Of a stretch of 64,000 nt of DNA, positions 23,045 to 48,200 are shown one piece after another. The notes below the pieces were generated by a model. That model did not search any database. It saw nothing but the letters and a program-made list of their open reading frames with translations, and had not been told where the DNA came from. The translations under genes and the position numbers were made by a program. Positions within the stretch are counted from its first letter, which is position 1. Each line of letters begins with the position of its first letter. Source of the DNA: a bacterium (lineage in GTDB: Bacteria; RBG-13-61-14; DATKZS01); the NCBI GenBank assembly GCA_963674965.2, contig CAXXFL010000001.1:1408001-1472000 (forward strand). Reading direction: 5' to 3'.

Positions 23045-24061
23045 TCAGCCTTTCGCTATTACTCCGTTCGGGAAGTCCTCCCAAATCAAGTTTTCCTGTA
23101 AAGTGATGTAAATGATCTTCAAAAATTTGCGAGCCAGCGCGATGATGGCCTTGCCCGCGCCGCGCCTGGCCTTGATACGCTCGTAGAAGCTCGACAAATA
23201 AGGGCTGTAACGCTTGGCGATGAGGGCGCATTGGACCAGGGTAGTGCGGCCGAGTTTGTTGCCCCGCTTCGTGATCCGGCCCGAGCGGCTGGTCTCGTTC
23301 GAGTTGCTAACCCGGGGGACGATGCCGAAGTAGGAGGCCAGCTTGCCCTCGTCGGGGAAGTCCTTGACGTCAACGATCACCGACAAAAGTATGGCCGAGC
23401 CAAGGTCCCCGATACCCTTTATGCTCTTCAAATTCTTGTGACCGGGAAGCTGATTGCCCGAGTCCTTGATGGCGGCCTCAAGCTCCTTGACCCCGGCGTT
23501 CAAGCCCCGAATCTGCTCCACCAGGACGCGGACCTCGGTCTTGACCATGGGGTCGAAAGGTATCTCCTGCACCGTCTCAAGGCCCTTCTCGCTGGAAAGA
23601 TATTCCTTCTTCAGGTTGATGCCGTGGGCCGAGCAGATGTTGTTGATCTTGTTCTTCAAGGCCGTGCGAAGCTTCACCAGCTTGTCCCGGCTTTGAGTGA
23701 GGCTTTTAACCTGAGCGTGTTCCTTGTTCGGCATCCTCACCTCCGGCAAAAGGCCCTTGGACAAAAACAGGGCAAGGCGTCTGGCGTCGTTGCCGTCCGT
23801 TTTGTTGACCGACTCGCTGATGACCTTGAACTGGCGAGGGTTGACAACCACGACGCGGGAAACGAGGCCGCGAACGGCGTCGTAAAAAAGGCGGACGTTG
23901 CCCGTGACCTCAACCGCGATCTCGTCGGACTCGCGAAGCGTCGAGCAAAACTTCTCCAAATCCTCGAGACGCCAGTCCTTGAGATAGTTCCGTCCGTTCT
24001 CGGCCAGGACGCAAGAGGTGAAACAATTCCTGTGCAGATCGATTCCAATGTACCTTCCCAT
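23045..24061 (-). CDS. IS110 family DEDD transposase/recombinase
   Basis: YIGIDLH, AVEVTG, KTDGND (DEDD); SIKGIG; LASYFGIVP..SNS catalytic-Ser region; ITKRGN..LGR; AIIALARK. Confidence 0.95.
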   Translation of the reverse strand: MGRYIGIDLHRNCFTSCVLAENGRNYLKDWRLEDLEKFCSTLRESDEIAVEVTGNVRLFYDAVRGLVSRVVVVNPRQFKVISESVNKTDGNDARRLALFLSKGLLPEVRMPNKEHAQVKSLTQSRDKLVKLRTALKNKINNICSAHGINLKKEYLSSEKGLETVQEIPFDPMVKTEVRVLVEQIRGLNAGVKELEAAIKDSGNQLPGHKNLKSIKGIGDLGSAILLSVIVDVKDFPDEGKLASYFGIVPRVSNSNETSRSGRITKRGNKLGRTTLVQCALIAKRYSPYLSSFYERIKARRGAGKAIIALARKFLKIIYITLQENLIWEDFPNGVIAKG

Positions 24062-32020: not shown

Positions 32021-33196
32021 TCACAGTCCCAGGTCCGACTTGGCGCGCAGGAAGTCCATTACCGCCTCCCTCGTGACCATGCCCACGAAGACGCCGTCCT
32101 TTACCACCGGGACCTGGTTGTAGCCGTCGGCCGCCATCATCTGCATAAGGTCGGTCAGGGGCGCGTCGGGGGGGACCGACTTAAGGACCGAGGCCGGGAT
32201 CATGACGTTCCTGACCTCCGTTTGCGGCCACAGTTCGCGCGCCACTCCCTGCAGGTTGTGCAGAGTCACGATACCCGAGACCCTGCCGTCCTCGAGGATG
32301 GGAAAACACCTGCGGCCGGTGTGAAGTATCTGTCCGTATACCAGGTCCGAGATAAGGGTCCTGGGATCGATAAAGGGGCAGTCCGTCATCATAACGTCGC
32401 CGGCCTTGTGCCCGGCCAGCATGTCCTGGAGGCGCTGGCGCTTGCCCGTCTGGGTCGCCGCGTTCAAGAGGAACCAGCCGATGAAGGCTATCCAGATGCC
32501 GTTGAACATGAGACCGCGAAATATCATGTATACTCCGCCGAAGATGAACAGGAAGGCGATGCCCCTGCCCACCGCGGCCGCGATCAGGGTGGACTTGGCC
32601 GAGTCGCTCGTGACTCCCCACAAGATCGAGCGGAAAACCCGGCCGCCGTCGAGGGGGAAGCCGGGTATGAGGTTGAAGACGGCCAGCATCATGTTGACCA
32701 TGGAAAGCCAGCCGAAAAGAACCACCAGCGGATGCAGTCCCCATTCGTTCATGGGCGCCGAAAAGCTGATCTCGCCCTGGCCAAAGGACATGTACGCGAA
32801 TATCGCCGCCACGCCGGCCAGTACGGATATGACGACGCTCACCGCCGGGCCGGCCAGGGCCATGAAAAACTCGTCTCCCGCGCTCTTGGGCTCCTCCGCT
32901 ATCTGCGCCGCGCCTCCAAAAATAAACAAGGTAATGCGGGGAACGGGTATGCCTTTGGCCAAGGCCACGAAGCTGTGCCCCAGTTCATGAAGAAGCACGG
33001 ATAAAAAGAAAAGGAAGCTGCCCACTATCCCCAGGCCCCAGGCCACGTATATCGGTCGGGCCACGCCCCCGAACTGGAACCTGGCCAGCGACCACGTTAC
33101 CAGCACGAAAATAATGAACCACGAGTAATCGAGGCGGACCTCGATACCCCTGACGGTGAAAATTTTGAATCCGTTTCCCAGCATATATTTACTCAA
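32021..33196 (-). CDS. Site-2 protease (M50) with CBS domains
   Basis: HELGH, AGP, FNLIPGFPLDGGR; C-terminal CBS pair. Confidence 0.93.
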   Translation of the reverse strand: MSKYMLGNGFKIFTVRGIEVRLDYSWFIIFVLVTWSLARFQFGGVARPIYVAWGLGIVGSFLFFLSVLLHELGHSFVALAKGIPVPRITLFIFGGAAQIAEEPKSAGDEFFMALAGPAVSVVISVLAGVAAIFAYMSFGQGEISFSAPMNEWGLHPLVVLFGWLSMVNMMLAVFNLIPGFPLDGGRVFRSILWGVTSDSAKSTLIAAAVGRGIAFLFIFGGVYMIFRGLMFNGIWIAFIGWFLLNAATQTGKRQRLQDMLAGHKAGDVMMTDCPFIDPRTLISDLVYGQILHTGRRCFPILEDGRVSGIVTLHNLQGVARELWPQTEVRNVMIPASVLKSVPPDAPLTDLMQMMAADGYNQVPVVKDGVFVGMVTREAVMDFLRAKSDLGL

Positions 33197-34183: not shown

Positions 34184-34888
34184 ATGAACGATTGGAACAA
34201 ATACCTGGGCAGGGTTGACTCCTTTTGCAGTCTCGCGGAAAAGGAGAGGGAGACCCTTCTCCTGGCCGCCCGGGAGAAGCGGCTCGAGAAGGGCCGGTCC
34301 CTCTTTTCCTCGCCCGAGAGCGAGGAGGTAATAATTATCCTGGATGGAGCGGCGAAAAGCTTTTACGCGGGGGGCCTGGAAAAGAAGCCGCTTTTGGACT
34401 TCCACAAGTCCGGCGAGGTCCTGGGCGAGGAGTCGGCCCTCCTATCCGGCCCGAGGGACGTCGAGGCCCTGGCCATGGGGAAGGCGCGAGCGCTGTGTTT
34501 TCCAGCCGACGAGGTCAGGGCCATGATGGACGCCCAGCCCAGGTTCGGGAGGACCATGTCCGCCCTATGCGTCTCCCGCGCCCGAGCGTGCCGCGCTCGA
34601 CTTTACTCGATGACCGCCGATCCCGTTCCCGTCCGCGTGGCCGGCGCCCTTTACGCCCTGGCCAGGAAGTTCGGCGAGCGAGGCAAAACGGGGACCATGA
34701 TCGCCCTCGCCGTCACGCACCGGGACGTGGCCGACTACGTTGGCGCCTCCCGCGAGGCCACCTCCTCCGTCATCTCGATCTTTCGAAAAAACGGACTAAT
34801 CACCGGCGGGGCAAGGCGGATAATTATCCCCGATATGAACGCCCTGAAACGGGCCTCGGAGAGAAACGCGGCGGACGACCGAGGATGA
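34184..34888 (+). CDS. Crp/Fnr family transcriptional regulator
   Basis: cNMP-binding GEVLGE...PR; HTH THRDVADYVGASREATS; start placed at ATG 34184. Confidence 0.88.
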   Translation: MNDWNKYLGRVDSFCSLAEKERETLLLAAREKRLEKGRSLFSSPESEEVIIILDGAAKSFYAGGLEKKPLLDFHKSGEVLGEESALLSGPRDVEALAMGKARALCFPADEVRAMMDAQPRFGRTMSALCVSRARACRARLYSMTADPVPVRVAGALYALARKFGERGKTGTMIALAVTHRDVADYVGASREATSSVISIFRKNGLITGGARRIIIPDMNALKRASERNAADDRG

Positions 34889-34927
34889 TTTTTCCGGTTT
34901 GGAAGAAACCGGCCGAGCCAGCCCCAA

Positions 34928-34963
34928 AAAAAAGCGGGGCCGGATAAGTAGCCCCGCTTTTTT
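34928..34963. terminator. Bidirectional intrinsic terminator
   Basis: AAAAAAGCGGGGC-N10-GCCCCGCTTTTTT between convergent genes. Confidence 0.8.
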
Positions 34964-34975
34964 AGCTTTTTATCG

Positions 34976-37450
34976 TTACTTGGTAATAACCAGGTCGCCT
35001 CCCGCCGGTGAGGTCGAGCTGGAGATCACCTGCACGGAGGATGAACTGTTCGAGATGGCGGTGATTTTTCCCTCGCCTATCTTTTGGGTGTCCGCTCCCA
35101 GGCTGTTTCCGGCCTGGTCGGTCTGGGCCACGACCTTGAAGAGGACGACCTTCATTCCCGGCAGTATTCGGTTGTTCCTGCCCAGGGTCACCTGCATGTT
35201 GTTGCCGCTGGCCTGGGCTATGTTGCCCTGGACGATGGGGAATGAATTTTGGAGCTTGACCGCCAGTCCCTGCGTGATGAACTGGAGGTTGGACAGGGAC
35301 TTGTCCTGATGGAAGGCGTCCCTGGTAACCATGACCCGCGACGAGTCCACGTCCACCACCTGGGCCTTGAGCTCGATGCTGGTGTCGGTCTCCCGCACCA
35401 CTCCCATGATGATGGCCTCGGCCGAGCTCCTCTTGCCGGCCCGCACCGCGCTGGTGGGATCGGTCAGGCCCGTGCCCGACAGTCGAAGCTCGCGAACCAC
35501 CGAGTCGACCTGGGACCGGTCGATGTACTTGAAGCGCCGCTGGCGGATGAGGGCGGTTGAGAGGTTGTCGTAGGCCACGTCGCCGATGTCCTTGAAGTTC
35601 GGGTCCTGGAAGAAGGGAAGCATGGAAACGGAAAGCCGCTCGGCCACGCTCCTGACCCTGGGCACGACCCTGGTGACCTTGAGCGTGACCACTTCCTCCT
35701 GGCCCTTCTCGTCGATGGCCCGGATATGGATGATGTTCTGGCCCGTCCTTAAATAAACCAGCTCGTTGAAAAAGGCGTTGGTCTTGGGAGCGCGCATCAC
35801 CTGCTTCTTGCCCACGAAAACCTGCTTGACCATCGAGCCCTGGCCGACCACGCTTCCCTCGATGTAAAGCTGGTTGCTGAACACGGTCTGGGGCTTGGTC
35901 TTGAGGAAAATTTGCGGCGGCTTGTCCTCGATGCCCATGGTCTCCTGGAGGGCGTTCCAGTAAAGCTCCGTTTCCACCGCCACCTTGACCGGCTCGCTAT
36001 AATCGGGCACGGCCCTTTCCCAGACCTGCTTGTTACGGTTCCAGGGCTCGACGACCATGCCCTTCGGGGGCAGCATGATCGGACGGGCGTCGGACGTCCC
36101 GGCCGAGGCCAGGCTGTAAAAGCGGTCGATCATCCTGGTCCAGCGGATGGGGGAGGGCGCCCTTGTGCCCTTGGTCTTGGGACCGAGCACGAGCACGCCG
36201 CTGGTCTCGTTGCCGGCGCTATCCACGGCGATGAACTTGACCCGGTCGGCCTGAAGGGGAGCGGTGACCTCGAACTTTCCACCGCCCAGGTTCTTGGGGG
36301 TCACGCCGCCGAACTCGAAGGACTTCATGCCCGAGGCCTCGTCGATGGTCCCCTTGATCTGGGCCTTGCCGCCCGGCGCCTCCTGAACGTCATCGATGTA
36401 AACGCGGGGGCCCTCGCGGTCGATGGTGAACTGAACGTTCTCCCGCGACTTCTTGCCCAAGAGGTCGGTAACGGCCACGCTGAGGGTGACCTGGCCGTCG
36501 GACTTCTGGAGGGGCACGGTAAAGAGGTCCATTGGCGTTTGTTCCTCCTCGCTCATTCCCTCTTGAGTGTCCTCGGCCGCGGCCTGGATCATGACCGGGA
36601 ACACGTCGGCCCTGGTCTTCTGGGAGAAGGTATAAGGACTCTGAGTGCCGTTGGCCTCGACGATCTGTACGCCCTGGTCGTCGCTGGACTCGATGACCAG
36701 ATAGAGCGTGCCCTCCTTGACCGGCGCGCCCGTCACGTCGTCGTCGCTTTTCCACCTGATGACCTTGCTGCCCCAGCCGACTTTGAGGCTCTTCTCGAGC
36801 TGCTTCCTGTCCTTGCCGCTTACCGCCTCGAGCAGCTCGGCTATCTCGTCCTCGGTAAAGTAGTAGGGCGACGCGACCTGCTCGTATCCGGCGGGAGCGG
36901 ACGGGCTGGATTCCATGACGAAGTCCACCGACGGCTCGGATGAGATCACTTTGATGGAGGAAACCTCGGGGTCCTCCGAGTCGCCGCCCGAGGTTTTAAG
37001 CTTCCCGGCCCGGGCCTTGTCCAGGTAGTACTGGGCCTGGCTGGACTCGGTGCATTGGAGAGATAATTCGAGTTCCTCGATGGCCCCGTCCATGTCCCCG
37101 AGATTGAACAAGGCCACGCCCCGGCCGCGATGGCCGAACCACTCGACGAAGTGCATGCCGTAGCTTCTGGCCCTTCTCGTGTCGCAGCCCGGGACCTTGG
37201 CCGCCCGGTCCACGCCCTCCCGTAGCTCGATGGCCCGCTCGTAGTCGTCCTTGGCGGCGTCCCAGCACTCGCCCGCGGCGTAGGAGTCGGCACGCTCCTG
37301 GTAACTGTACCATTCCTCGCGGAAGTTGCCCTCCACCTCCCCGTAGGTCTTCCCGTCCTTTTCGCAGGGCGGTCCCTTTTTGGCCGCGGCGCTTACCGCC
37401 AAGCCAAGGGCCGAGATGAGAACTAAAAAGACCGTAGCCAACCTTTTCAT
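34976..37450 (-). CDS. Secreted TPR + Ig-like + CsgG/HfaB-like + FlgT-C-like protein
   Basis: Signal peptide; TPR (HRGRGVALFNLGDMDGAIEELELSL); CsgG-like IDRSQVDSVVRELRLSGTGL.D...AVRAGK; C-terminal VTLG...PGMK; GGAGG RBS before ATG 37450. Confidence 0.75.
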   Translation of the reverse strand: MKRLATVFLVLISALGLAVSAAAKKGPPCEKDGKTYGEVEGNFREEWYSYQERADSYAAGECWDAAKDDYERAIELREGVDRAAKVPGCDTRRARSYGMHFVEWFGHRGRGVALFNLGDMDGAIEELELSLQCTESSQAQYYLDKARAGKLKTSGGDSEDPEVSSIKVISSEPSVDFVMESSPSAPAGYEQVASPYYFTEDEIAELLEAVSGKDRKQLEKSLKVGWGSKVIRWKSDDDVTGAPVKEGTLYLVIESSDDQGVQIVEANGTQSPYTFSQKTRADVFPVMIQAAAEDTQEGMSEEEQTPMDLFTVPLQKSDGQVTLSVAVTDLLGKKSRENVQFTIDREGPRVYIDDVQEAPGGKAQIKGTIDEASGMKSFEFGGVTPKNLGGGKFEVTAPLQADRVKFIAVDSAGNETSGVLVLGPKTKGTRAPSPIRWTRMIDRFYSLASAGTSDARPIMLPPKGMVVEPWNRNKQVWERAVPDYSEPVKVAVETELYWNALQETMGIEDKPPQIFLKTKPQTVFSNQLYIEGSVVGQGSMVKQVFVGKKQVMRAPKTNAFFNELVYLRTGQNIIHIRAIDEKGQEEVVTLKVTRVVPRVRSVAERLSVSMLPFFQDPNFKDIGDVAYDNLSTALIRQRRFKYIDRSQVDSVVRELRLSGTGLTDPTSAVRAGKRSSAEAIIMGVVRETDTSIELKAQVVDVDSSRVMVTRDAFHQDKSLSNLQFITQGLAVKLQNSFPIVQGNIAQASGNNMQVTLGRNNRILPGMKVVLFKVVAQTDQAGNSLGADTQKIGEGKITAISNSSSSVQVISSSTSPAGGDLVITK

Positions 37451-37701
37451 GTGGCCTCCTTTCAAAAGGCGTGAAAGTCAGGCGTTCCTTTCAACCGGGA
37501 AAGGACGCGTCTTATAGAATAATGGTTCACGGGCGGATCAAATGCAAGTATATTTCGCCCCTACACTTATTAATTGACGGGTTAACGGGCGGCGCCTTTC
37601 TTCAGCCCTCGGAAAAAATCGGCCGCCCTTGTCCTTCCTTGGCAAGGGCGGCCGCTCCAGCCTCCCGATATGAGATATTCCGCTTGCGGCGGTATTAGCG
37701 T

Positions 37702-40700
37702 TTATTCAGCGGCTTCCTTAACTTTCATGCCCGCGGCCATTTTCTCGGGCGCCTGAAGGACGGTCGCCTTCGAGACGTCGGGTCCCGCGCCGGTGATCTC
37801 GATCTTTCCGATCTCGATCTCGTCCGCGTCGAGAATATCGAGTTTCATGCCCTTGGCCGCGCCGGCCTTTTTACCGACGTTAATCTTAATTTCCGTTTTA
37901 TCCTTCGAGACCTCGGTGATCTTGCCCTGCACCGGGTACTCGCTCTCGATCTGGGTAATGAGACTGGACGCTATGGCCTTGGCCAGGTCGCCGGGGCTTT
38001 GCTTGCCCTGGATGACCTCGCTTATGGCGACCTTGGCGATGGTGGTCTCGGTCTCGATCAGGCGGAGGTTGACCTGGGTTTCCTCGCCGCTCCTTATATA
38101 GGAGCCAGTGGCGATCAGCCTGGCCCCGAAGAGTTTTCCCAGCCTGAGCCTGGTATCGTCGTTGGCCAGCTCGGTGGAGGAAAGGTTGAGCTCGCGAAGG
38201 ATCAGGTCGATCTTTTCGCGCTCGACCACCTCGACCCTGCCGGAGTCGCGAAGGGCCTGGGTAAGGGCTATCTTGAGGAATTCCTCCTCTCCTTCCATGA
38301 GCATGCTCTTGCCCTTGCGGTCGAAGTCGAGGAAAGTCATGGTCATGGCGCGGGAGGTCCATTCATCGTCCGCGTTCTTGGGAGGAGGCACGTTGCCCGT
38401 GCGGAAACGCTCGGCCAGGTCCTTGGTCAGGCTCTGAAGCTCGGCCTGCTTTTCCGAGTCGGCCTGCATGGCCATGGTGTTGTTTATCTGGGCCAGCATG
38501 GCCAGGGCCACGGTGCTTTCGGGGTCGGACTTGAGCGCCTTCTCGAAGACCTCCTGGGCCTGGGCCACGTTGCCCATGGCCAGGAAGCTTTGACCGGCGT
38601 TGATGGCCAACTCGGAGTTGTTGGGATCGGCCTTGAGCCCGGCCTCATAGGCCTTCATGGCCGCGTCCTTGTCCCCCCGCTGGCTGGCGTCGAGACCCAT
38701 GCGGTTATAGGTCAAAGCCAGGCCCTGCATGCCCTGCATCCTGGTCTCGGGTATCTCCGAGAGTTTTCCGTAATCGGCCAGGGCGCCCGGGTAATCTCCC
38801 TGCTGGAGCTTCATGCCCGCGGAGGCCAGAAGCTTCGAGTGGTCCTTGCCCCCGCCGAACAGCACGTAGCCGCCGATGGCCAGGAGCACGGCCAGTATGG
38901 CCACGGCTACTCCCAGGGTGGCCTTGCTGAGTCCCTGGTCCTGAGCCGGGGCCGCCATAGTCGAGGCGCCCCGGGTGACGACCGGCTGGCCGGGCTGAGT
39001 AAGAGGGGCCGCGTCGGCCTTGGGCGGGGCCGGGGCCTCCATGTCCTGAGTCGTCTCGTCGGCGGCGGCCACGTCCTCCAGGTAAGAGAAGGTCGGGTCG
39101 CCGTAGACCATATAGGAGGCCCAGACAATGGTGTCCTCCCCGTACTTGTCGATAAGAGCCAGCCTGGCCCGGCGGGCCGATTCGCCCACGGAGGCGCCCT
39201 TGATGACTTCCTTGTAGAAGGCTATGGCGAAGTCGTGACCCGGGTCGTCCAGAATGTCCCAGAAGGTGCCGATGTAGTGCTGCACTCCCGAGACCAGGAA
39301 GGCGTTGGCCACGCCGAAGATGTCCTTTTCATATCCGGCCTCGAGTTTCCACTCGTCCGTCTGGCCCGACTGGCAGGCGTTGGCGAAAACCAGACTGGGC
39401 ATGGGCTTCTTGCCGGTCATGTTCTTGACGTCGGCGGCCGAGAGCTTGCCGTCGGCGAGCAGCCAACCCGAGTTCTCGGGATTGTCCGAGTCGTAGTCGG
39501 CGTGCCCGGCGTAGTGGATGAGGTCGTAGTCCCGAATCTTGGCCTTGAGGAAATTGGTCGGGACCTCGCTCGACTTGAGGTTGACGTTGATGAACTCGTG
39601 CTCGCCGTCAAGCTCGTTCCTGATGTTCGAGCCCTCGTCCCGGCTGGCGGGAAGGTCCGAGCGCGGATCGGCCACGACCAGCATGCGAAGAGGCTTGGCG
39701 ATCTCGCGGTCGGGCACGTCGGCGATCCTCTGCCGGGTCGCGACTATCCGGCCCATGCCGAAGCGCTGGCAGAAGAACTGCTTGCCGTCGAATAAAAGCT
39801 CCCACGGCACGTGGACCAGGCGGTCGTCCATTTTGATGACCAGGTGCTCGGCCTGGGAATTGGCGATTTTCTCCTTGGCCTCCTGGGACAGGAGGTGGTC
39901 GAAGAGTATCTGGCCCACGCCCTGCATCTGCTTCAAGATTTCCTTGGTCACCTTGCCCCGCGTGTTGGCGCGATTCAACAGGTTGACCACCTCGTCGCAC
40001 TGCTCGCGCACCAGCTTCTCGTCGAGCTTGACCACGTCGTACTGGCTGACGGTCCGCTCCTCTCCCCGCTGGCGCTCGAACACGCTGATCTTGAGCTTGT
40101 TGCCGTCGCGGGAGGCGTCGAGCTCGATCACCCTGCCCCTGACGACCTTGCCCCTTTTATCGACGGTGCGGCGGGTGGCGGCCTTCTTGAACTCGCCCTC
40201 CGCCACCATCTGGGTATCGCTCCATACGACGCGGTAAATCTTGACCGGCTCGGCCTTGCCCTTGCACTCGACGTCGCCGAAGAAGCGCACCAGTATCTCG
40301 TCGTCTCCCCTTACCTCTTTATAGAGGCTGTCGGAGATGAGTATCTGCTCCGCGTCGCATTTGGACTCGACCCGGGCGGCAACGTTGACCGCGTCGCCGA
40401 ACACGTCCTTTTCCTCGACAACGGCCGGGCCGTGGTTAAGGCCGATGCGAACGAGGATACGCCGGTGCTTCTGGTCCTGGGCCTTGTTGTATTCCTCCAG
40501 GACCTTCTGCATGGCGATGGCGGCCTTGACGCCCTGGGCCGGGTCGTCGAACACGGCCATGATGGCGTCGCCGATGGTTTTGATCACCCTGCCGCCGAAC
40601 TGCTTGACCTTGGGAAAGAGCATGGCGTTATGGCGCTCGACCATGGCCCGTCCCTCGACGTCTCCATAGGTCTCGAAATATGAGGTCGACCCTTTGATGT

Positions 40701-40881
40701 CGGTGAACATGACGGTGATGTTCTTCTGGAACTTCTCCTTGAGCATCTGGTCGAGCGCGGCCTGTTCCTGCTCGAGCCGGAGGCGCTCCTGGAGGATGGA
40801 ATCGACCGAGGCGGGCATTTTATCGTCCTTCTTTGGGGCCTCGCCCTGATTTTTCTCTTTATCGTGCTCATTGTCCGCCAT
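37702..40881 (-). CDS. Class III adenylate cyclase - CHAT protease - TM - TPR - CsgG-like fusion
   Basis: Cyclase MFTDIKGST, KTIGDAIMA, DVFGDAVNVAAR; CHAT LIHYAGH, FANACQS, WASYMVYGDP; one TM; TPRs; VVEREKIDLILRELNLS...GKLFGA. Confidence 0.88.
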   Translation of the reverse strand: MADNEHDKEKNQGEAPKKDDKMPASVDSILQERLRLEQEQAALDQMLKEKFQKNITVMFTDIKGSTSYFETYGDVEGRAMVERHNAMLFPKVKQFGGRVIKTIGDAIMAVFDDPAQGVKAAIAMQKVLEEYNKAQDQKHRRILVRIGLNHGPAVVEEKDVFGDAVNVAARVESKCDAEQILISDSLYKEVRGDDEILVRFFGDVECKGKAEPVKIYRVVWSDTQMVAEGEFKKAATRRTVDKRGKVVRGRVIELDASRDGNKLKISVFERQRGEERTVSQYDVVKLDEKLVREQCDEVVNLLNRANTRGKVTKEILKQMQGVGQILFDHLLSQEAKEKIANSQAEHLVIKMDDRLVHVPWELLFDGKQFFCQRFGMGRIVATRQRIADVPDREIAKPLRMLVVADPRSDLPASRDEGSNIRNELDGEHEFINVNLKSSEVPTNFLKAKIRDYDLIHYAGHADYDSDNPENSGWLLADGKLSAADVKNMTGKKPMPSLVFANACQSGQTDEWKLEAGYEKDIFGVANAFLVSGVQHYIGTFWDILDDPGHDFAIAFYKEVIKGASVGESARRARLALIDKYGEDTIVWASYMVYGDPTFSYLEDVAAADETTQDMEAPAPPKADAAPLTQPGQPVVTRGASTMAAPAQDQGLSKATLGVAVAILAVLLAIGGYVLFGGGKDHSKLLASAGMKLQQGDYPGALADYGKLSEIPETRMQGMQGLALTYNRMGLDASQRGDKDAAMKAYEAGLKADPNNSELAINAGQSFLAMGNVAQAQEVFEKALKSDPESTVALAMLAQINNTMAMQADSEKQAELQSLTKDLAERFRTGNVPPPKNADDEWTSRAMTMTFLDFDRKGKSMLMEGEEEFLKIALTQALRDSGRVEVVEREKIDLILRELNLSSTELANDDTRLRLGKLFGARLIATGSYIRSGEETQVNLRLIETETTIAKVAISEVIQGKQSPGDLAKAIASSLITQIESEYPVQGKITEVSKDKTEIKINVGKKAGAAKGMKLDILDADEIEIGKIEITGAGPDVSKATVLQAPEKMAAGMKVKEAAE

Positions 40882-40882
40882 T

Positions 40883-41584
40883 TTACTCTCCTTTCATCTC
40901 CAGGGTGATTTTACCAAGCGGCTCTCCCACTCGAGTAATTTCAACCCGGTATTGTCCAAACTTAAGGTTCTCGAAAACGGCGGTCCCGCCGTCGAGCATC
41001 GAGCTTTCCAGCTCGAGGTCATCGTCGAAAAGACTGACCCTGACGCCCCTGGCGGGAAGGCCCGACTCGGCGTCCGTCATTTTTACCGTGATTTCCCCTC
41101 GGTCCGGCTTGGTTTTTTCCACGTCCACGTCGGTCCTGAACGGGGGCATCAGCTTGGAAAAGGTAACCAGGGTCTCGCTCACCACGTGGCCTTCTCCCCG
41201 CGTGGCGTCGGTGGCGGCAACGGCCTGGCCGCGGACGTCGTCGCTCATTTTAAGGACCTTGGCTACTCCTTTGGCGAATTGAATGACCAATTCCATGGTT
41301 TGGTTCCTCGAGGGGTCAAGGGCCTTGGCCCTGGCAAGTGCTCTTTGCGGTATAATTATCCGATCTTCCTTGTCTTTTTCCGAAAGGACCGTCTTGATTA
41401 CCCGCAAGGTGAAAAGACACTCAGGGCATCTGGCGGCGTGCATAAGAAGCTCGTCGGCGAGAGATTCCTCGAGTTTTCCCTCAGCCAGGGCGGCCAGGGT
41501 TTCATCGTCCGGACATTTTCCCCTGGGCCGGCTGGTGATGGACCTTTTGGCCAATCTCTTTAATATGTTGTCTTTTAGCTTCAT
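40883..41584 (-). CDS. Soluble zinc-finger (zf-HC2) anti-sigma factor with C-terminal beta-sandwich domain
   Basis: CPDDETLAAL..G.L......HAARCPEC; no TM; C-terminal GVRVSL...GTAVFENL..GQYRVEI; start could be as far up as 41632. Confidence 0.78.
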   Translation of the reverse strand: MKLKDNILKRLAKRSITSRPRGKCPDDETLAALAEGKLEESLADELLMHAARCPECLFTLRVIKTVLSEKDKEDRIIIPQRALARAKALDPSRNQTMELVIQFAKGVAKVLKMSDDVRGQAVAATDATRGEGHVVSETLVTFSKLMPPFRTDVDVEKTKPDRGEITVKMTDAESGLPARGVRVSLFDDDLELESSMLDGGTAVFENLKFGQYRVEITRVGEPLGKITLEMKGE

Positions 41585-41653
41585 CTCAAAAAAATCCGTC
41601 GTTGAAAGGACCCTGCGCACCTTCAATCTCAAAGGAAATAGACGGGCGAGAAA

Positions 41654-42319
41654 TTATTTTCTTCCCCGCTTCTTTACCGATTCTTTCAGTTTATTTTTAA
41701 TCCTATTTACGCGGCTATAAACGGTTTTCACCGAAATGCCAAGTATTTGAGAGACTTCCTCGGGACCAAGTTCCCGTCCGTAATATAACTCCATGAAATA
41801 TCTGTCGTTTTCGCATAATTCCTCAATGGCTTCCGCCATGGCCGCGTTTTTTTCGTTTTCCTCAAAATCTTCGTCCGGCATGGTCACGGGGTTCCTATGG
41901 GATACCTCGAGCGCCATTTCCTCGCTGGTAATGTCCACAAGTTTTATTCTTCGGGCCTTTTGCCTCAAATAATCGATAATGAACCTTACCGTAATGGTCC
42001 GAATCCAGGTCGCGGCGGTCGCGCCCTCGTACCCCCTGTAAAGTCTAAGCTTTTTACAGTCGTCCTTGATAAAGTGGATGATGACGTCGTTAAACAGGTC
42101 TTCAAGTTCTTCAGGGGCGGGCTTGTAATTCTTAAGGGAACAGGTGCGGTGGATGGAATAATAGATAAGCTTGCCGTATTGGTCCAGGAACCTGTCCCAT
42201 GCCCCGGGCTCCGCGGCACAGCAGGCCCGGAGCAACTCCTTGCCGGAATCGAGATCGTCGAAACTATTATCGCCGTTAATTTCGGACAAAATTATATCCG
42301 CGCGTGGCCGTCTCCGCAT
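41654..42319 (-). CDS. ECF sigma-70 factor
   Basis: AWDRFLDQY, EDLFNDV, ATWIRTIT.RFIIDYLR (region 2); EEVSQILGISVKTVYSRVNR (region 4); start uncertain. Confidence 0.88.
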   Translation of the reverse strand: MRRRPRADIILSEINGDNSFDDLDSGKELLRACCAAEPGAWDRFLDQYGKLIYYSIHRTCSLKNYKPAPEELEDLFNDVIIHFIKDDCKKLRLYRGYEGATAATWIRTITVRFIIDYLRQKARRIKLVDITSEEMALEVSHRNPVTMPDEDFEENEKNAAMAEAIEELCENDRYFMELYYGRELGPEEVSQILGISVKTVYSRVNRIKNKLKESVKKRGRK

Positions 42320-42446: not shown

Positions 42447-44012
42447 TTATAATTTATCGTACCTGAAGAAAAGCCTCTTGATGGGAGCCAGTATCCATCT
42501 GAAAACGATTATAGGTATGCCGGTTTTCTTGAACCTGAAATAGGCGTCCATGGCCGAAAGGCCCGAGAACATCCAGTCCGAGAAGCGGTAGGCCTCCTCG
42601 ATGAGGTCCAGGCTAACGGGCAAAAGGTCGATAACGTTCTGCCAGGGATCGTATATGGACTTGTCGCCCTCCCAGATCACCTCGGGCTTGCCAAAGGCCT
42701 CCCAGGCCAGGCCCAGGAAACGGCCCACCCGCGGGTCGTCCGCGTCAAGCCCCATCTTCTTGGCCCCCACCCAGTCCACGGCCATGAGGTTCTCGCCCGC
42801 GATAATCGTCTTGGTATGGTTCGGATGGGTGTCCGTTATAACGCCGAGCTGGCCGTCAGCGCTCCAGAAGGCGTCGATAATCCCGAAGTGGACCTTGAAG
42901 TGCTTCATGCTCTCGATGGTGGGCCAGTCGTATTCGCGCTTGGTATGGTACTCGAGGAGCTTGTTCTGACAGGGCAGTGTCCCGTAAATGTTTTTAAGGG
43001 TCAGGGTGTACTGACAGAAGACGTGGGTCTTGTTCTTGGCGAAGGACACCCGGAAGTCGGCGTCGCGCCAGGTTGGCCCCACCCAGTGCATGCCCAGCCT
43101 TCCTCCGTAATCGTAGGGGACCATCTCCTCGGTAAGGTCCACTATCCGGTAGTTCTCGCCGGTGTATCCGATATATTCGGCGACTTTTTTAACCTCGCGG
43201 TTCTCATAATAGTTGCCATAGGTGCTCTGGGCCTCGACCAGGGCAATATTGGTGAATCCCTCATCATAAATAATTTTAATGAGCTTCTCGACCAACTGGG
43301 GGTCCGTAAAGGAGCTGTGGTCCTTTTTGCTGTGCATGAACATGAAGTTGGGCTTGACCGCCACCAAAAAGTCCTCTTTACTTTTTCCAGAGTCCTTATG
43401 GCATTTTTTAAGGACTTCCATGAATTTCGCGTCCTCGAGGGTCTTTTCAAGGAGCGCGATCTTTTCCTCGCCCTTGTTCACCACCACCCGGGTGGGACCG
43501 GTATGCTCGGTAATGTCCAGGTGGTCGCGACAGTAGACCGTCTGCCTTTTGAACCAGGCCCGGATGGACCGAAGATACAGGATAAGGGTGATCCAGAAAA
43601 TGGTGCCGTCCACCAGAAAGATGGCAAGATAGGCGAAATGCCGGGCGGAGAAAAGAAACAGGCCCATGCCCGAGACGGCGCTCGCCGCCTTGGCCACCAG
43701 AACGTAAACGGTAAGGGGCTTGTACTTGACCACGTTGTAATAGACCATGCAACTGAGGGCGGAGATGGTGGTCATCATCGAGAAAGTGAGGGAAAGCCAG
43801 AACCTCTCGCTTGACATATCGACGGGCGGCAGCTTGAGATGCAGCCCTTCCGAGATATCGTTCATCAGGGTCAGCGTGAAGTCGGGCGCGAAAAGGAAGA
43901 CGAAACCGACGAACAGGTAGGTCAGTCCCGCCACTCCCATGAAGTATCTTAGCTGCGTCTCCTGGCGATGGGGCGCCCTCTCGTCCTCGCCGCATCCTTT
44001 GTGCTCGTTCAT
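42447..44012 (-). CDS. Membrane-anchored DUF362 domain protein
   Basis: Four N-terminal TMs; VKPNF, TDP, KNKTH, TLTLKN.YG, AVD motifs; ATG overlaps upstream stop. Confidence 0.75.
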   Translation of the reverse strand: MNEHKGCGEDERAPHRQETQLRYFMGVAGLTYLFVGFVFLFAPDFTLTLMNDISEGLHLKLPPVDMSSERFWLSLTFSMMTTISALSCMVYYNVVKYKPLTVYVLVAKAASAVSGMGLFLFSARHFAYLAIFLVDGTIFWITLILYLRSIRAWFKRQTVYCRDHLDITEHTGPTRVVVNKGEEKIALLEKTLEDAKFMEVLKKCHKDSGKSKEDFLVAVKPNFMFMHSKKDHSSFTDPQLVEKLIKIIYDEGFTNIALVEAQSTYGNYYENREVKKVAEYIGYTGENYRIVDLTEEMVPYDYGGRLGMHWVGPTWRDADFRVSFAKNKTHVFCQYTLTLKNIYGTLPCQNKLLEYHTKREYDWPTIESMKHFKVHFGIIDAFWSADGQLGVITDTHPNHTKTIIAGENLMAVDWVGAKKMGLDADDPRVGRFLGLAWEAFGKPEVIWEGDKSIYDPWQNVIDLLPVSLDLIEEAYRFSDWMFSGLSAMDAYFRFKKTGIPIIVFRWILAPIKRLFFRYDKL

Positions 44013-44800
44013 GATTCCTCCTTTTCCTTGGGCGCGTCCTGGCCGAGGGACTCGGCCGCGAGGAAGGCGGCCAGCGCGAATTGGGTCAGTATCTCGAGGG
44101 GCCAGCATCCGATAACCAGAAACAGGGGCGGATAGCTTGGGCTATGGCTGAACGTCCATATCCCGGCGGCGATTGCCCCCAGGTACTCGCAAAGGTTGGC
44201 GGCGATAAGCGTCGCCATGACGGTCCCGGCGAAGACGGCGAAATTCATCCGGATGGAAGTATAGGCGGCGACGGCGAAGAGGATGACGTAAAAGGCCACG
44301 AAGTAATAGCCCACGCCGTCCCAGTACTCGCCGAGGGACAGCCAGATGAACCAGAAGAAGAAGGCCACGCAAAGCGGGTTGATCCATCTCGGCGCGGGCC
44401 TCAGCCATTGGGGGAAAGAGGGCTCGAGCAGGCTGACGGTCTTGATCAAGACCCGGGACGAGACAACGTAGACCGTGACCGCCGCCGCCACCCAGGCCAA
44501 TATGCCGAAAGTGTAGAAATGGCCGGGCCCGTTGTAGGTCCAGCATTTCGAGGCCACGCCTATGGACTCCTTCACGTACTCGATCAGGAAGACGCCAAGC
44601 AAAAGGGCCAGCATCCTTTTGGTGGACGAGAAAAGGGCCATCCAGACCACGCAGGCGAAGCCGAAAAGGAGCAGGACCAGGAAAGGCCCTCTCAGCATGG
44701 GCGCGTAGCCTTCATGGACGGCCGCGAAAAGGGTGACGGCTATGAAAAGCCCGGCTAGAAAAAGGTTCTTGGGCCTGTCGTTGACGATATCCGACTTCAT
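44009..44800 (-). CDS. Hypothetical polytopic membrane protein
   Basis: Multiple TMs; internal duplication E...G......WT(Y/F). Confidence 0.7.
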   Translation of the reverse strand: MKSDIVNDRPKNLFLAGLFIAVTLFAAVHEGYAPMLRGPFLVLLLFGFACVVWMALFSSTKRMLALLLGVFLIEYVKESIGVASKCWTYNGPGHFYTFGILAWVAAAVTVYVVSSRVLIKTVSLLEPSFPQWLRPAPRWINPLCVAFFFWFIWLSLGEYWDGVGYYFVAFYVILFAVAAYTSIRMNFAVFAGTVMATLIAANLCEYLGAIAAGIWTFSHSPSYPPLFLVIGCWPLEILTQFALAAFLAAESLGQDAPKEKEES

Positions 44801-45249: not shown

Positions 45250-48200
45250 ATGGATTTTATAAAAAAGAACCGTTCAAAAATGGCCGTCCCTTTAGGGACT
45301 TCGTTACTTATTTGCTTAACGGTTGTCACCTGTGCGCTTCCACAAGGGGCCGATATTAAGTGGACCCACCCTCCGTTTCTTAATTTCGGTTACGGCATAA
45401 AGATTCATGACGTCGTAGACCCAAACATGAACGATAAGAATGAACGGATAGTTTTCTATTTTGGAGAGGGCCAGGACACTTCATCTTTTTATCCTGGCGA
45501 CGATTTGGCAATTGAAAAATGCCTTGCCCATGAAATAAACGGGGTTTGGCAGTGCGACGGACAGTCCGAAAGTCTTGACCTCAACGAGTATCTCCCGACC
45601 GATTTCTGCCAGTTCGGTCCCGGCCAGCCGGGGGCTGAACTTTGCTTCATTTGCAATGATTATTCCACTCCATGCTCTTCCAGTGACAATAACTGCTGCC
45701 AGTTTATAGGCTTTCAATATGACACGGAGGAGTACATTCTATCCGAGTCGTCGAGAGTAACCGGATCGTTTACATACGCATATGCGTGGGACTGGACGGA
45801 AAAAGACGGACTGGATGATAAGATATACGACCGGCTGACGATATGGGTGGACAACCTGGAGGGAGACGCCTCAAGCAACTACCTGTATTTCGTAACCATA
45901 AACGGTCAATATACGCTTGAGTTCGTATCTCACGCGCATGACGACTCCTGGGATGAGATACCATATTTGAAGTCCCGCCGCCCGGCCTTTAACTCCGGTC
46001 TCGGGATCGGCGAACCTTTTCCACCACATGGTGAGTTGAAAATGGAGTTCAGCGAGCCGATGAGGATAGTTGCCCCTCATGCCTGGTATGATCCCGCTCC
46101 TCCACCCAGCGAAGATTCCTTCATCGGCCTGGACGAGTACGGCCAGGAAATCAGCGACTTCACCAACTCCACCGTTTTCAGGGGCTGGATGGACGCGGGG
46201 CTTCCTCCTAACACGGACGTCAATATTATCCTGTTCGGCGAGGGAAATGAATGGTGGAGCATGCTCAATTACCATCCAGACGACCTCATCGGCCAAAGCG
46301 TCCGTCCGTCCGAGATTGGACATGATCAATACTTGGTCTGGCCGCCCCTCCAGGACGCCGATGGAACGCGAATGGCCATGGGGGACTATATCGAAGCCGT
46401 CGAAAACCCCGCCGGGTCCGGAGTGCTGGAGGAATCATACACGATGGACGAGTTTTCCTCCCATGACCCGTACGACGTGGTGGAACTGCTCTTTAAAACG
46501 TCTCCCGTCCGGGCCGACGTCCGTTACGACAAAGACAATATCGACAATGAATTGCTGGCGCCCTACATGCCTTTGTCCGGATGCGTCGAAATGTCAGCCC
46601 AGGTTGACGAGGCCGAGGTGGACGGACTTGATCTTGAGGTCCTCGACCCGTCCGCTGATTACGCTGACTCCGGACTGGGCCTGGGCTCGTGCGGACCCAT
46701 TTCGTCCGGACAGGCCGCGTGCGCCTTCGATTTTTCCGGCGTGCCCGTATCCGGGAAAACCTACTCCATAAGGTTCAATTCCTACTACGGCGCGGCGCTT
46801 AAAGGTCTCGATCAGATCAACGCTCAATTCGATCTAACCGGTGACCATGACGCCGACGGCCTTTCCGACGCCCAGGAGATTCAAAACCACTCCACCGACC
46901 CTTGTATAGCCGACACGGACGGCGACGGCTTGTTCGACGGAGACGAGGTTTACACCTATATGACTGACCCGACGGACCCGGACACCGATGGAGACGGCAT
47001 GCCCGACGGTTGGGAGCACGTCAACGGTCTTGACCCGCTCGACGACGGCGATTGGGACGACGATCAGGATTCCGACGGCCTGACCAACCTTAATGAGTTT
47101 AATAACGGGACGGACCCATCGAATCAGGACACGGACGGCGACGGCCTATTCGACGACATGGAGATTTTCTACGGATATCCGTATGATCCTTTGGAACCCC
47201 AAGAAAATTCAAATATTATCGTTGACGCGCGGTCCAGCGTGTTCGGTTCTTTTGACGACCCATACAATCACAGGACCATTCCAAACATGGACACGGGACT
47301 TTACGAATTGTTCCTGCTGAATCAGGCCAAGGACACTTTCGACTACGTGGGAAATGGAATGCTGCTATTCGAGATTGACGCGAATGGCTCATTGACACTG
47401 GTAAGACATTTAAATTCCGACGTCTCCAGCGGAGATTGGGACGGCGTTGATACCGAGGACCAGTGGTTCGAGGACACGATAACTTCATTCGCCCTTAACG
47501 GAGACGAGCTTGTCATTGGATCGTTCAGAGGCGGCCTGTATTATTACGACCTTGTCAACGAAAAGATAAACAAACATTTTACGATGGCCAATACCAACGT
47601 TGCGGCCACGATTACCCAAATCGCCGGGAACGACATATATCTTGTTCCAGACGACTGCGATATAGTAAATCCGCTTTGTCCATCACCTTCGACAACCCCA
47701 TGCTTGTCAAGTGATTTGACGAGTGGCTGGGATTGGCAAAACGCAATAAACCGGCAGATTATGATAAACGGATACAGTTTTATAGTGACTTCTATAAGCG
47801 TCGCCGGCTCCGAAATTGTAGTTCAGTTACTTCAGCCCATGGAATACTTCGCGCGACCAGACCCGATTCAAGGGGTGGGGCCATCCTACAATAAAGCCGT
47901 TTTCCAAACGGGGCTTATCGAGAATAACGTTTTTCAAATCCAAGCTGACTCGGATGATATATGGATCAATTCGGGCAGGAGTCAAATGAAAAGCCCGTTT
48001 CTAGGAGCGGACGAAACTGGGGGTATGAGTAAAATCAAAAAATCCGGTATCCAGGATGGAAATTCCTCGATAAGGCCTCAAGCTTCCGAGGCTGGATATA
48101 ACATGTACCCGGCGGCCTCATTTCATATTGACTCGAACGAAACGAAATGGATCGTGTGGGACAATTCCGACTCCGCTACCGAGACCGCCATTGGAAAGCT

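Follow-up and report, generated by a model that had tools for sequence, protein, structure and literature searches.

How could a signal from the cell envelope reach a sigma factor of the extracytoplasmic function (ECF) type whose anti-sigma factor has no membrane anchor? This question is raised by a gene cassette in a 64,000-nucleotide stretch of bacterial DNA (the window: GenBank assembly GCA_963674965.2, contig CAXXFL010000001.1, positions 1,408,001 to 1,472,000 of the forward strand; GTDB lineage RBG-13-61-14, DATKZS01). Much bacterial signal transduction runs through ECF sigma factors, and to our knowledge only a few ways of activating them are known: regulated intramembrane proteolysis, partner switching, conformational change, phosphorylation and CRISPR-linked proteases. 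A first-pass annotation, made from the sequence alone, had described four co-oriented genes (for a sigma factor, a soluble anti-sigma factor, a receptor with adenylate cyclase and CHAT domains, and a secreted partner) and a convergent gene of the Crp/Fnr family. It had joined them into a trans-envelope system in which the receptor frees the sigma factor by proteolysis and makes cyclic AMP (cAMP) for the Crp-family protein. All five genes lie where that annotation placed them. Our own proposal is narrower. An envelope signal would activate the CHAT domain of the receptor, which would cleave an anti-sigma factor already docked on it and so free the sigma factor, with cAMP as an optional second output. 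We give this reading a probability of roughly 0.55, and regard proteolytic release of the sigma factor as the most likely mechanism.

The features of the cassette are these, in positions of the window:

41654-42319, minus strand: gene for an ECF (group 4) sigma factor, 221 residues (TIGR02937 and Sigma70_r4_2)
40883-41584, minus strand: gene for a soluble anti-sigma factor with a CHCC zinc finger, 233 residues counted from the ATG
41366-41515, minus strand: anti-sigma domain, helical, with the zinc ligands (residues 24-73; AlphaFold2 (AF2) model and RsiW profile alignment)
41183-41224, minus strand: flexible loop of the anti-sigma factor with Arg129, a candidate cleavage site (residues 121-134; AF2 predicted local distance difference test (pLDDT) below 50)
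40886-41170, minus strand: C-terminal Ig-like beta-sandwich of the anti-sigma factor, the predicted CHAT-docking domain (residues 139-233; complex model)
37702-40881, minus strand: receptor gene, 1059 residues (Pfam and hydropathy)
40249-40731, minus strand: class III nucleotidyl cyclase domain of the receptor (residues 51-211; Guanylate_cyc, E 4.4e-22)
39097-39918, minus strand: CHAT caspase-fold domain of the receptor (residues 322-595; PF12770, E 2.6e-37)
38845-38937, minus strand: single transmembrane segment of the receptor (residues 649-679; Kyte-Doolittle)
38452-38823, minus strand: periplasmic TPR repeats of the receptor (residues 687-810; several TPR families of Pfam, for example TPR_2 at 1.4e-10)
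37705-38379, minus strand: periplasmic module of the receptor, FlgT/TolB-N/LpoB-like, with a C-terminal beta domain (residues 835-1059; AF2 and Foldseek)
34976-37450, minus strand: secreted partner gene, 824 residues from the ATG, with signal peptide, TPR, Big_13 and FlgT/LpoB-like module

Linkage of the Anti-Sigma Factor to the CHAT Domain

Of 12 genomes of the same class, 10 have an orthologue of the receptor that is close to full length, and two (G001, G008) hold partial matches only; none was found in the 28 more distant genomes searched. Nine loci were cut from the same-class genomes, one of which starts inside the receptor gene (L022) and another of which ends at it (L021). Sigma, anti-sigma and receptor genes are adjacent in all eight loci that include upstream DNA, with the sigma orthologue directly upstream of the anti-sigma gene each time (8/8), and the partner gene lies downstream of the receptor in seven of the eight loci in which this could be assessed, L015 being the exception. 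The genes that flank the cassette differ in every genome: none of the window's own neighbours (Crp, a formyl transferase, a protein with M50 and CBS domains, ExbB/ExbD, a DUF362 protein and a 263-residue open reading frame (ORF) at 44009-44800) was found in the related loci.

The anti-sigma and receptor genes are also very closely joined. As the first-pass annotation had noticed, a single base separates the TAA of the former from the ATG of the latter, and the last codons of the anti-sigma gene hold a Shine-Dalgarno-like run. We count this junction, read from the sequence as probable translational coupling, in favour of a functional link.

When the receptor alignment was used for a pattern scan, 77 more loci turned up, five of them on the same contigs as the nine, and these were scored with our own hidden Markov models. 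A CHAT domain is present in 47 loci; three (L042, L065, L079) have too little upstream DNA to judge, leaving 44. The anti-sigma gene lies directly upstream of the receptor in 30 of the 44, and a sigma gene is also present in 28 of these 30, the other two (L030, L061) being cut by contig ends. Divided by receptor type, the counts are:

cyclase-CHAT receptors: anti-sigma gene directly upstream in 13, none upstream in 13
CHAT receptors without a cyclase: anti-sigma gene directly upstream in 17, none upstream in 1 (L071)

Two cyclase receptors without a CHAT domain (L072, L088) keep the periplasmic module and the partner, and neither has a sigma or an anti-sigma gene. Because 17 of 18 cyclase-less CHAT receptors are accompanied by the anti-sigma gene, and none of the two CHAT-less receptors is, the anti-sigma factor follows the CHAT domain. 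On the same counts, the core role that the first-pass annotation had given the cyclase is not supported. Sigma and anti-sigma genes are kept, too, beside CHAT receptors whose periplasmic parts are of other kinds, DUF4384 or trypsin-like (L046, L048). A DUF4384 extracytoplasmic part occurs in three anti-sigma-linked CHAT receptors (L048:8995-12045, L046:8983-11094 and L113:1-1464), with a trypsin-like domain in L048, and the sensor part therefore appears to be swappable. On this comparative evidence we conclude that the anti-sigma factor tracks the CHAT domain, and neither the cyclase nor the sensor.

The reverse test, seeded on the anti-sigma family, was a whole-genome search of 301 genomes, one phylum sample. 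Family members were found in 13 genomes at 15 loci, 14 of them assessable, and a CHAT gene lies directly downstream in 11 of the 14 (seven with a cyclase, four without). The neighbourhood of sigma, anti-sigma and CHAT receptor that the first-pass annotation had described thus recurs in the close loci, in the wider set and in the reverse direction. In a tree of 45 CHAT domains, presence of the anti-sigma gene changes about six times (5-7 in bootstraps), compared with 12.1 for shuffled labels. In that tree, the cyclase-bearing clade to which the window belongs has as its sister (support 89/80) a cyclase-less clade from Nitrospirota; the cyclase was therefore gained or lost inside lineages linked to the anti-sigma factor. 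Taken with the complex model described below, this comparative evidence makes the link between anti-sigma factor and CHAT domain well supported.

The Sigma Factor and Its Soluble Zinc Anti-Sigma Factor

The sigma protein scores 92.5 bits against the ECF model TIGR02937 (cut-off 42.9) and 30.8 against Sigma70_r4_2 (cut-off 25.7), with Sigma70_r2 just below its threshold (23 vs 24). It consists of sigma-2 and sigma-4 regions only, and with the ECF model above cut-off it belongs to the ECF (group 4) class of sigma-70 factors.

The anti-sigma ORF extends to a TTG at 41632, and the orthologues favour the ATG at 41584 as its start. A search of 1.84 billion cluster representatives gave 18,833 matches to the family at E<=1e-3, 1,893 at <=1e-10 and 399 at <=1e-30; relatives named in the sources are called "hypothetical protein" only. 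Among the best 150 matches, 139 are full-length proteins (190-283 residues) and serve as the wider set of representatives below, while the remaining 11, long repeat proteins, match at the beta-sandwich alone.

The Pfam zf-HC2 match of the window's protein is weak (E 0.051; 14.1 bits, cut-off 22.2). Its zinc ligands, C24, H49, C53 and C56 in the pattern C-x24-H-x3-C-x2-C, are invariant in 31/31 relatives and are kept in 121, 137, 137 and 138, respectively, of the 139 wider representatives, of which 14 have His at position 24. Searched against structures in the PDB, the family profile matches RsiW (7.7e-5), RslA (7.4e-4) and the N-terminus of DdvA (8e-4), and also ChrR and RsrA. With an H-x3-C-x2-C motif, a fourth ligand and a helical N-terminus, the protein has the features of a class I zinc-binding anti-sigma domain (ZAS). 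There is no transmembrane helix: the maximum of a 19-residue Kyte-Doolittle window is 0.83, and no window reaches 1.6 in any of the 31 relatives. The absence of such a helix rules out a membrane-anchored anti-sigma factor of the RsiW, RseA or DdvA type. The first-pass description of a zf-HC2 anti-sigma factor lacking a membrane segment was therefore right about the membrane; its Pfam label falls below cut-off, and the assignment is carried instead by the zinc ligands and the profile matches to solved structures.

The AF2 model of the anti-sigma factor has an overall pLDDT of 83. Helices at residues 27-73 (pLDDT above 90) are followed by beta strands and by a beta-sandwich at 139-231, for which Foldseek returns generic Ig-like folds only. 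A single segment, the loop of residues 121-134, falls below a pLDDT of 50, and it is the only disordered loop in the model. At position 129, within this loop, 112 of the 139 representatives have Arg, 21 Leu and 4 Met. These features of the model make the Arg129 loop our candidate for the scissile site.

A Cytoplasmic CHAT Domain on a Single-Pass Receptor

The receptor has one hydrophobic segment long enough to span a membrane (residues 649-679; 19-residue Kyte-Doolittle maximum 2.61, the sole segment at or above 1.6), and its sequence carries no N-terminal signal. From the single segment and the missing signal it follows that the cyclase and CHAT domains should be cytoplasmic and the TPR and FlgT-like part periplasmic. 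The CHAT match is strong (129.3 bits, cut-off 24). H456, H460 and C503 are invariant in 31/31 receptors linked to an anti-sigma gene, and His460 and Cys503 are, we presume from the motif, the catalytic dyad; the corresponding alignment to a caspase-like protein of solved structure, 3bij, is weak (E 0.11). The domain is thus a member of PF12770 with His and Cys in place, and a putative endopeptidase. Its predicted topology and its invariant His-Cys pair agree with the cytoplasmic CHAT domain of the first-pass annotation. Sequence searches of the CHAT profile against solved structures gave no close relative; even Csx29, the CHAT protease of the type III-E CRISPR system (craspase), is reached only at E 0.4 and so is not found by sequence. 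Between the CHAT domain and the transmembrane segment lies a linker of low complexity and poor conservation.

Predicted Docking of the Anti-Sigma Factor on the CHAT Domain

The first-pass annotation had pointed to a complex model of the two proteins as a check. We modelled residues 235-620 of the receptor, which include the CHAT domain, together with the anti-sigma factor, using paired alignments of 31 rows. Binding is predicted: all three runs give the complex a score of 0.77, the highest score among three controls being 0.02. A mark of 0.77 is reached by 58 of 80 solved complexes and by two of 110 mismatched pairs, counts that are only a rough guide here, our own alignments having been used. 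At least 90% of contacts are common to the three runs, and the pLDDT of the bound partner is 70-72.

In the modelled interface, CHAT residues 408-444, including an edge strand at 432-439, meet residues 179-220 in the C-terminal beta-sandwich of the anti-sigma factor. R182, S194 (each kept in 138/139 representatives) and E191 (129/139) lie in this interface. All three belong to the top four of the C-terminal domain by conservation in the 139 representatives; the fourth, Y212 (138/139), is not among the residues named at the interface. The model supports binding of the anti-sigma factor to the CHAT domain. It is unlikely that the score reflects memory of a solved complex, because the CHAT profile misses Csx29 and the C-terminus of the anti-sigma factor has only generic Ig-like matches. 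Conservation on the CHAT side was also considered as evidence. R421 is kept in 26 of 30 receptors with an anti-sigma factor versus 3 of 14 without one, a difference that is confounded by kinship and was given no weight.

Comparison with Known Switches

The comparisons in this section draw on parts of the published accounts. The nearest likeness is to craspase. In the portion of its description used here, the N-terminal part of Csx30 binds CASP-sigma, a sigma factor, and its C-terminal domain docks on the CHAT domain of Csx29 whether or not the complex is active; Csx30 is then cleaved at a small, flexible loop, after which its fragments are apparently degraded (PMC10028731). The cassette shares with this system a cytoplasmic CHAT protease and a soluble sigma inhibitor whose N-terminal part would bind an ECF-like sigma factor and whose C-terminal domain would dock on CHAT. 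In craspase, loop cleavage relieves inhibition; here both the docking and the loop are predicted from models. The likeness is closer than the first-pass annotation had claimed when it drew the analogy, in that a sigma-binding N-terminal part, a CHAT-docking C-terminal domain and a flexible loop are found in both. There are also differences. Craspase contains Cas7-11, CRISPR RNA and Csx31, whereas in the cassette a receptor that crosses the membrane once and senses in the periplasm would be the activator; the cassette's inhibitor, unlike Csx30, has a classical zinc anti-sigma domain; and an adenylate cyclase is fused to the cassette's receptor, unlike in craspase. Pfam finds no cas-related families among the 16 neighbouring ORFs of the window, the rest of the window and the genome lying outside that scan.

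DdvA of Myxococcus xanthus combines an anti-sigma domain, a transmembrane helix and a periplasmic TPR-CHAT part in one protein; as far as the consulted part of its description goes, its CHAT active site is incomplete and it is proposed to depend on intramembrane proteolysis by RseP (PMC11506125). Like the DdvA/DdvS pair, the cassette has an ECF sigma factor and a CHCC zinc anti-sigma domain, and in both a CHAT domain is proposed to start sigma release. Unlike DdvA, however, the cassette has its CHAT domain in the cytoplasm, as part of a separate receptor, and the anti-sigma factor has no transmembrane helix, a topology that would need no site-2 protease step. A switch of the DdvA/DdvS type was accordingly set aside, as the anti-sigma factor and the CHAT domain belong to different proteins, with CHAT N-terminal to the membrane segment, on the cytoplasmic side. 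A protein with an M50 domain and two CBS domains is encoded 2 kb away (32021-33196, minus strand) and was considered as a site-2 protease; it was rejected because there is no transmembrane helix in the anti-sigma factor and no related locus has the gene.

The DdvA account raises another possibility, since in the part used here DdvA is proposed to cleave its own linker in trans (PMC11506125). The CHAT domain of our receptor might likewise cut its own linker (residues 600-650), or act in the pathway of the secreted partner, with the anti-sigma factor regulating CHAT; a soluble particle of cyclase-CHAT, anti-sigma and sigma would then be released, or the activity of the cyclase changed. The low-complexity linker in front of the membrane segment would suit such processing. 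That linker is poorly conserved, however, no model speaks for its cleavage, and the strict conservation of the docking residues of the anti-sigma factor would be left unexplained. We consider self-processing of the receptor, in either outcome, distinctly improbable.

Two further comparisons bear on cleavage of the anti-sigma factor as we propose it. The CalpL/CalpT/CalpS system of type III CRISPR is, in the portion of its description used here, a similar trio of signal-activated protease, soluble anti-sigma factor and ECF-like sigma factor. Its protease, CalpL, is a SAVED-Lon protein activated by cyclic tetra-adenylate (cA4), whereas that of the cassette would be a CHAT domain on a membrane receptor. 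With the RseA/DegS/RseP and RsiW pathways the cassette shares the proposed route from envelope signal through anti-sigma proteolysis to release of an ECF sigma factor, in so far as the same two sources describe it (PMC10028731, PMC11506125), and its anti-sigma domain is RsiW-like. RseA and RsiW span the membrane and, in those accounts, are first cut in the periplasm; the first cut in the cassette would be cytoplasmic and made by a caspase-fold enzyme.

A Proposed Model for Proteolytic Release of the Sigma Factor

In the resting state that we propose, the zinc-bound N-terminal domain of the anti-sigma factor would hold the ECF sigma factor, with the C-terminal beta-sandwich docked on the edge strand of the cytoplasmic CHAT domain; receptor and anti-sigma factor together would act like a membrane-anchored anti-sigma factor. 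The TPR and FlgT/LpoB-like module of the receptor would read an envelope cue with the secreted, paralogous partner and, in many relatives, with participation of an outer-membrane barrel of the FadL type. The signal would turn on His460/Cys503 of the CHAT domain, most simply through a change in the oligomeric state of the receptor, and CHAT would cut the docked anti-sigma factor, probably in loop 121-134 near Arg129. General proteases would clear the remaining sigma-bound fragment and thereby free the sigma factor. The N-terminal class III adenylate cyclase, which is fused to the receptor in this lineage, may make cAMP as an optional second output.

Several observations weigh against this model. 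In the complex model, the interface strand at 432-439 is remote in sequence from His460/Cys503, and the Arg129 loop lies outside the confident contacts, so that the model supports docking and does not support presentation of the loop as a substrate. Position 129 itself is Leu or Met in 25 of the 139 representatives. An anti-sigma gene is missing upstream of 14 of the 44 assessable CHAT loci, and three of the 14 assessable anti-sigma loci have something other than CHAT directly downstream (a beta-helix protein, a protein of no known family and a GH10 protein). Whole genomes were searched for the anti-sigma family for five of the 14 CHAT loci without it, and three of these five genomes have no member anywhere; in such genomes CHAT would therefore have another role or another substrate. 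The locus counts overstate independence, the rows being kin, and well-supported branches of the CHAT tree force only three (at least) of the changes in anti-sigma presence. No ECF-type promoter motif common to the regions upstream of 29 sigma genes was found: a search for pairs of 5-mers and 4-mers at 14-19 nt spacing gave AT-rich pairs only, in at most seven regions, and an alignment of six of the upstream regions had no conserved block. We therefore propose no regulon. Finally, the case for the model is built throughout from sequence comparison and structure prediction.

The absences have more than one origin. One of the five searched genomes holds a full copy of the anti-sigma gene elsewhere. 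In L037, a remnant of about 75 of the last anti-sigma codons, with an internal stop, lies directly upstream of the receptor (~8750-9000), and L037 and the intact locus L027 both neighbour recJ; remnant and common neighbour point to a recent deletion of the anti-sigma gene. The relative represented by L037 and L101 has lost sigma and most of anti-sigma, and its FadL and partner genes are each split into two ORFs, which may reflect decay or long-read indel errors.

Some of the same observations would fit a different mechanism, in which CHAT is merely the membrane dock of the anti-sigma factor, a conformational change or another protease frees the sigma factor, and the dyad has a different substrate. 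The distance between confident interface and dyad, and the uncertain placement of the loop, are what such a tether would predict, and the cyclase-CHAT receptors of genomes without any anti-sigma factor indicate at least one other role for CHAT. Against a tether without cleavage stand the His/Cys pair, invariant in all 31 anti-sigma-linked receptors, and the persistence of the anti-sigma factor beside CHAT through changes of every other domain. Moreover, the solved craspase, in the part of the work used here, combines constitutive docking with subsequent loop cleavage (PMC10028731). We hold a tether without cleavage to be unlikely, and continue to prefer cleavage of the docked anti-sigma factor by CHAT.

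The Cyclase and the Neighbouring Crp-Family Gene

Two features lie next to the partner gene:

34928-34963, no strand assigned: hairpin with a 13-bp stem between the partner and Crp genes, likely a bidirectional terminator
34184-34888, plus strand: adjacent gene for a Crp/Fnr-family regulator (cNMP_binding and HTH_Crp_2), probably outside the system

The cyclase residues D61, K101, D105, D159, N166 and R170 are invariant in 9/9 orthologues. Two of them, D61 and D105, we take to be the metal-binding aspartates; with the Lys/Asp substrate pair and the Asn/Arg pair they give the domain the full set of a class III cyclase of the adenylate type, in agreement with the first-pass annotation. The domain aligns with the solved cyclase Ma1120 of Mycobacterium avium (E 5.8e-20), K101, D159 and R170 falling on K101, D157 and R168. 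In the part of the Ma1120 work used here, K101 and D157 are the pair that specifies ATP and R168 is a transition-state residue (PMC4215837).

With such a cyclase, the receptor could run a circuit with two dedicated outputs, freeing the sigma factor and making cAMP specifically for the adjacent Crp-family regulator, as the first-pass annotation had it. All six catalytic residues and the ATP-type Lys/Asp pair are compatible with this. So is the arrangement of the genes: the Crp gene is convergent with the partner gene across a gap of 87 bp, and the hairpin between them, with an A-run and a T-run on its flanks, is likely the shared terminator that had been described. The whole 87-nt gap folds at -31.1 kcal/mol (z -2.47). 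The Crp/Fnr product matches cNMP_binding (6.7e-10) and HTH_Crp_2 (3.9e-16), with 27.2 bits against the CRP equivalog model, whose cut-off is 266. In the related locus L040 a cNMP-binding protein is encoded directly upstream of the cyclase-CHAT gene, and in L052 another is encoded 4 kb upstream.

The comparative evidence speaks against a dedicated Crp output. No Crp homologue was found by tblastn in 11 close loci or by phmmer in the ORFs of L014-L099, and, as noted above, the flanks of the cassette are not conserved. The genome contains 21 cNMP-binding matches, among which the Crp neighbour ranks 20th by score, the second lowest, and eight matches to cyclase domains. The claim that Crp is the dedicated output is thus not supported, and the two-output circuit built on it has only a slim chance of being correct. 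The Crp neighbour is probably coincidental and outside the system, and we read the cyclase as an optional second output module.

The L040 protein (238 residues, L040:2501-3217) lies upstream of a cyclase-CHAT receptor that has neither sigma nor anti-sigma gene. From the sequence, this hints that some versions of the receptor may signal by cyclic nucleotide alone.

The Periplasmic Module and the Secreted Partner

AF2 models residues 835-1059 of the receptor with a pLDDT of 83.7. The best Foldseek matches are to FlgT (8z5n, 6.7e-11; 3w1e, 3e-10), followed by the N-terminal domain of TolB (2.5e-6), LpoB (2.4e-5), CsgG (3.5e-5) and then PelC. FlgT is a protein of the Vibrio flagellar H-ring, and the likeness is one of fold alone, with an identity of only 10-11%; no flagellar gene context was seen among the 16 neighbouring ORFs examined in the window. 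In sequence, a partial CsgG/LpoB match in the receptor (residues 872-929) covers 57 of the 210 positions of the CsgG profile (43-99), and the match in the partner covers profile positions 33-103 of 210. The "CsgG-like" label of the first-pass annotation was therefore overstated; by its modelled structure the module is a broad periplasmic alpha/beta fold with a small beta domain, best described as FlgT/TolB-N/LpoB-like, and not a pore-forming CsgG. A curli channel of the CsgG family (PF03783) was rejected on the partial match and on the position of the receptor module after an inner-membrane helix.

The partner begins with a hydrophobic signal segment that ends without a Cys in the sequence, followed by TPR repeats and a Big_13 match just below its cut-off (25.6 bits vs 27), and it carries a FlgT/LpoB-like module homologous to that of the receptor (E 2.8e-6). 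In three relatives a gene for an outer-membrane barrel of the FadL/TodX type lies between receptor and partner (L025:12242-13900, L027:12350-13711, L033:5418-6800); others have a similar gap or an ORF of about 450 residues at that place. A FadL/TodX barrel gene is lacking from the window's cassette and its closest relatives, so that in this genome the cassette does not itself encode an outer-membrane leg for the "trans-envelope" system.

Two side observations concern the receptor gene. Compared with the family-level relatives L016-L018, the window's receptor is without some 70-80 residues of the periplasmic TPR region (alignment columns 760-840). Run X3, a wastewater metatranscriptome, contains five contigs of 266-633 nt with 97-99.6% identity, all inside the receptor gene (37662-40726). 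They are a weak hint that the receptor gene of a near relative is present in an RNA library; having been assembled from such a library, and possibly from a near relative, they are no proof of transcription. That no long piece from the same run falls on the genes for the sigma factor, the anti-sigma factor or the partner proves nothing.

Novelty and Wider Implications

The cassette is real and conserved, and it is undescribed in the literature searched, where a search for CHAT domains with ECF sigma or anti-sigma factors brought up only DdvA, craspase and type III-B systems; supplements to ECF classifications may list such a context. To that extent the first-pass annotation, whose author knew of no characterised system with such an architecture, agrees with what we found. 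Of the circuit it drew, the conserved unit of sigma factor, anti-sigma factor, CHAT receptor and partner is retained; what we drop are the Crp output, the core role of the cyclase and the name CsgG-like.

CHAT proteases and ECF sigma factors also occur in defence systems, and the cassette might serve in anti-phage defence or abortive infection, in which CHAT would be the death effector and the cyclase would generate a signal in the manner of Pycsar. In PADLOC, the cyclase weakly matches PycC (best E 9.5e-10), and the CHAT region has a weak match to BovA (5e-7). These matches reflect general domain homology, however, and sigma factor, anti-sigma factor and partner have no PADLOC match. The 16 neighbouring ORFs include no cas or defence genes, related cassettes lie in ordinary chromosomal contexts (beside recJ in L027, for example), and the sensor is on the periplasmic side. 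A role in defence therefore seems to us very improbable indeed.

If cleavage of the docked anti-sigma factor by CHAT is correct, it adds to the ways of ECF activation a receptor-coupled, cytoplasmic, caspase-like protease that acts on a docked soluble anti-sigma factor, a new route that involves neither site-1 and site-2 proteolysis nor CRISPR. The mechanism of the CRISPR craspase would then be tied to ordinary envelope sensing, and the route would be spread over several hundred sequence clusters in Thermodesulfobacteriota, Nitrospirota, Omnitrophota and unclassified lineages. Craspase and DdvA would, on this comparison, be particular instances of a wider partnership between CHAT domains and anti-sigma factors. 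The fused cyclase would be a natural case of a single sensor with a proteolytic and a second-messenger output. More tentatively, and with somewhat less than an even chance in our estimate, the cassette may exemplify proximity-activated caspase-like signalling, in which a periplasmic cue makes CHAT cut a pre-docked soluble anti-sigma factor and, in some lineages, produces cAMP as well.

Other Features of the Window

The gene directly upstream of that for the sigma factor (42447-44108, likewise minus strand) encodes a 553-residue DUF362 protein; it is not found beside the cassette in related loci. Farther away, an IS110-family transposase (DEDD_Tnp_IS110 and Transposase_20) is encoded at 23045-24061 on the minus strand. 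On the plus strand, 45250-52050 is a giant ORF of 2266 residues that matches only a bacterial TSP3 repeat and, weakly, a GH39-like stretch, and its guanine plus cytosine content falls to 45-49% in parts, compared with about 60% around it.

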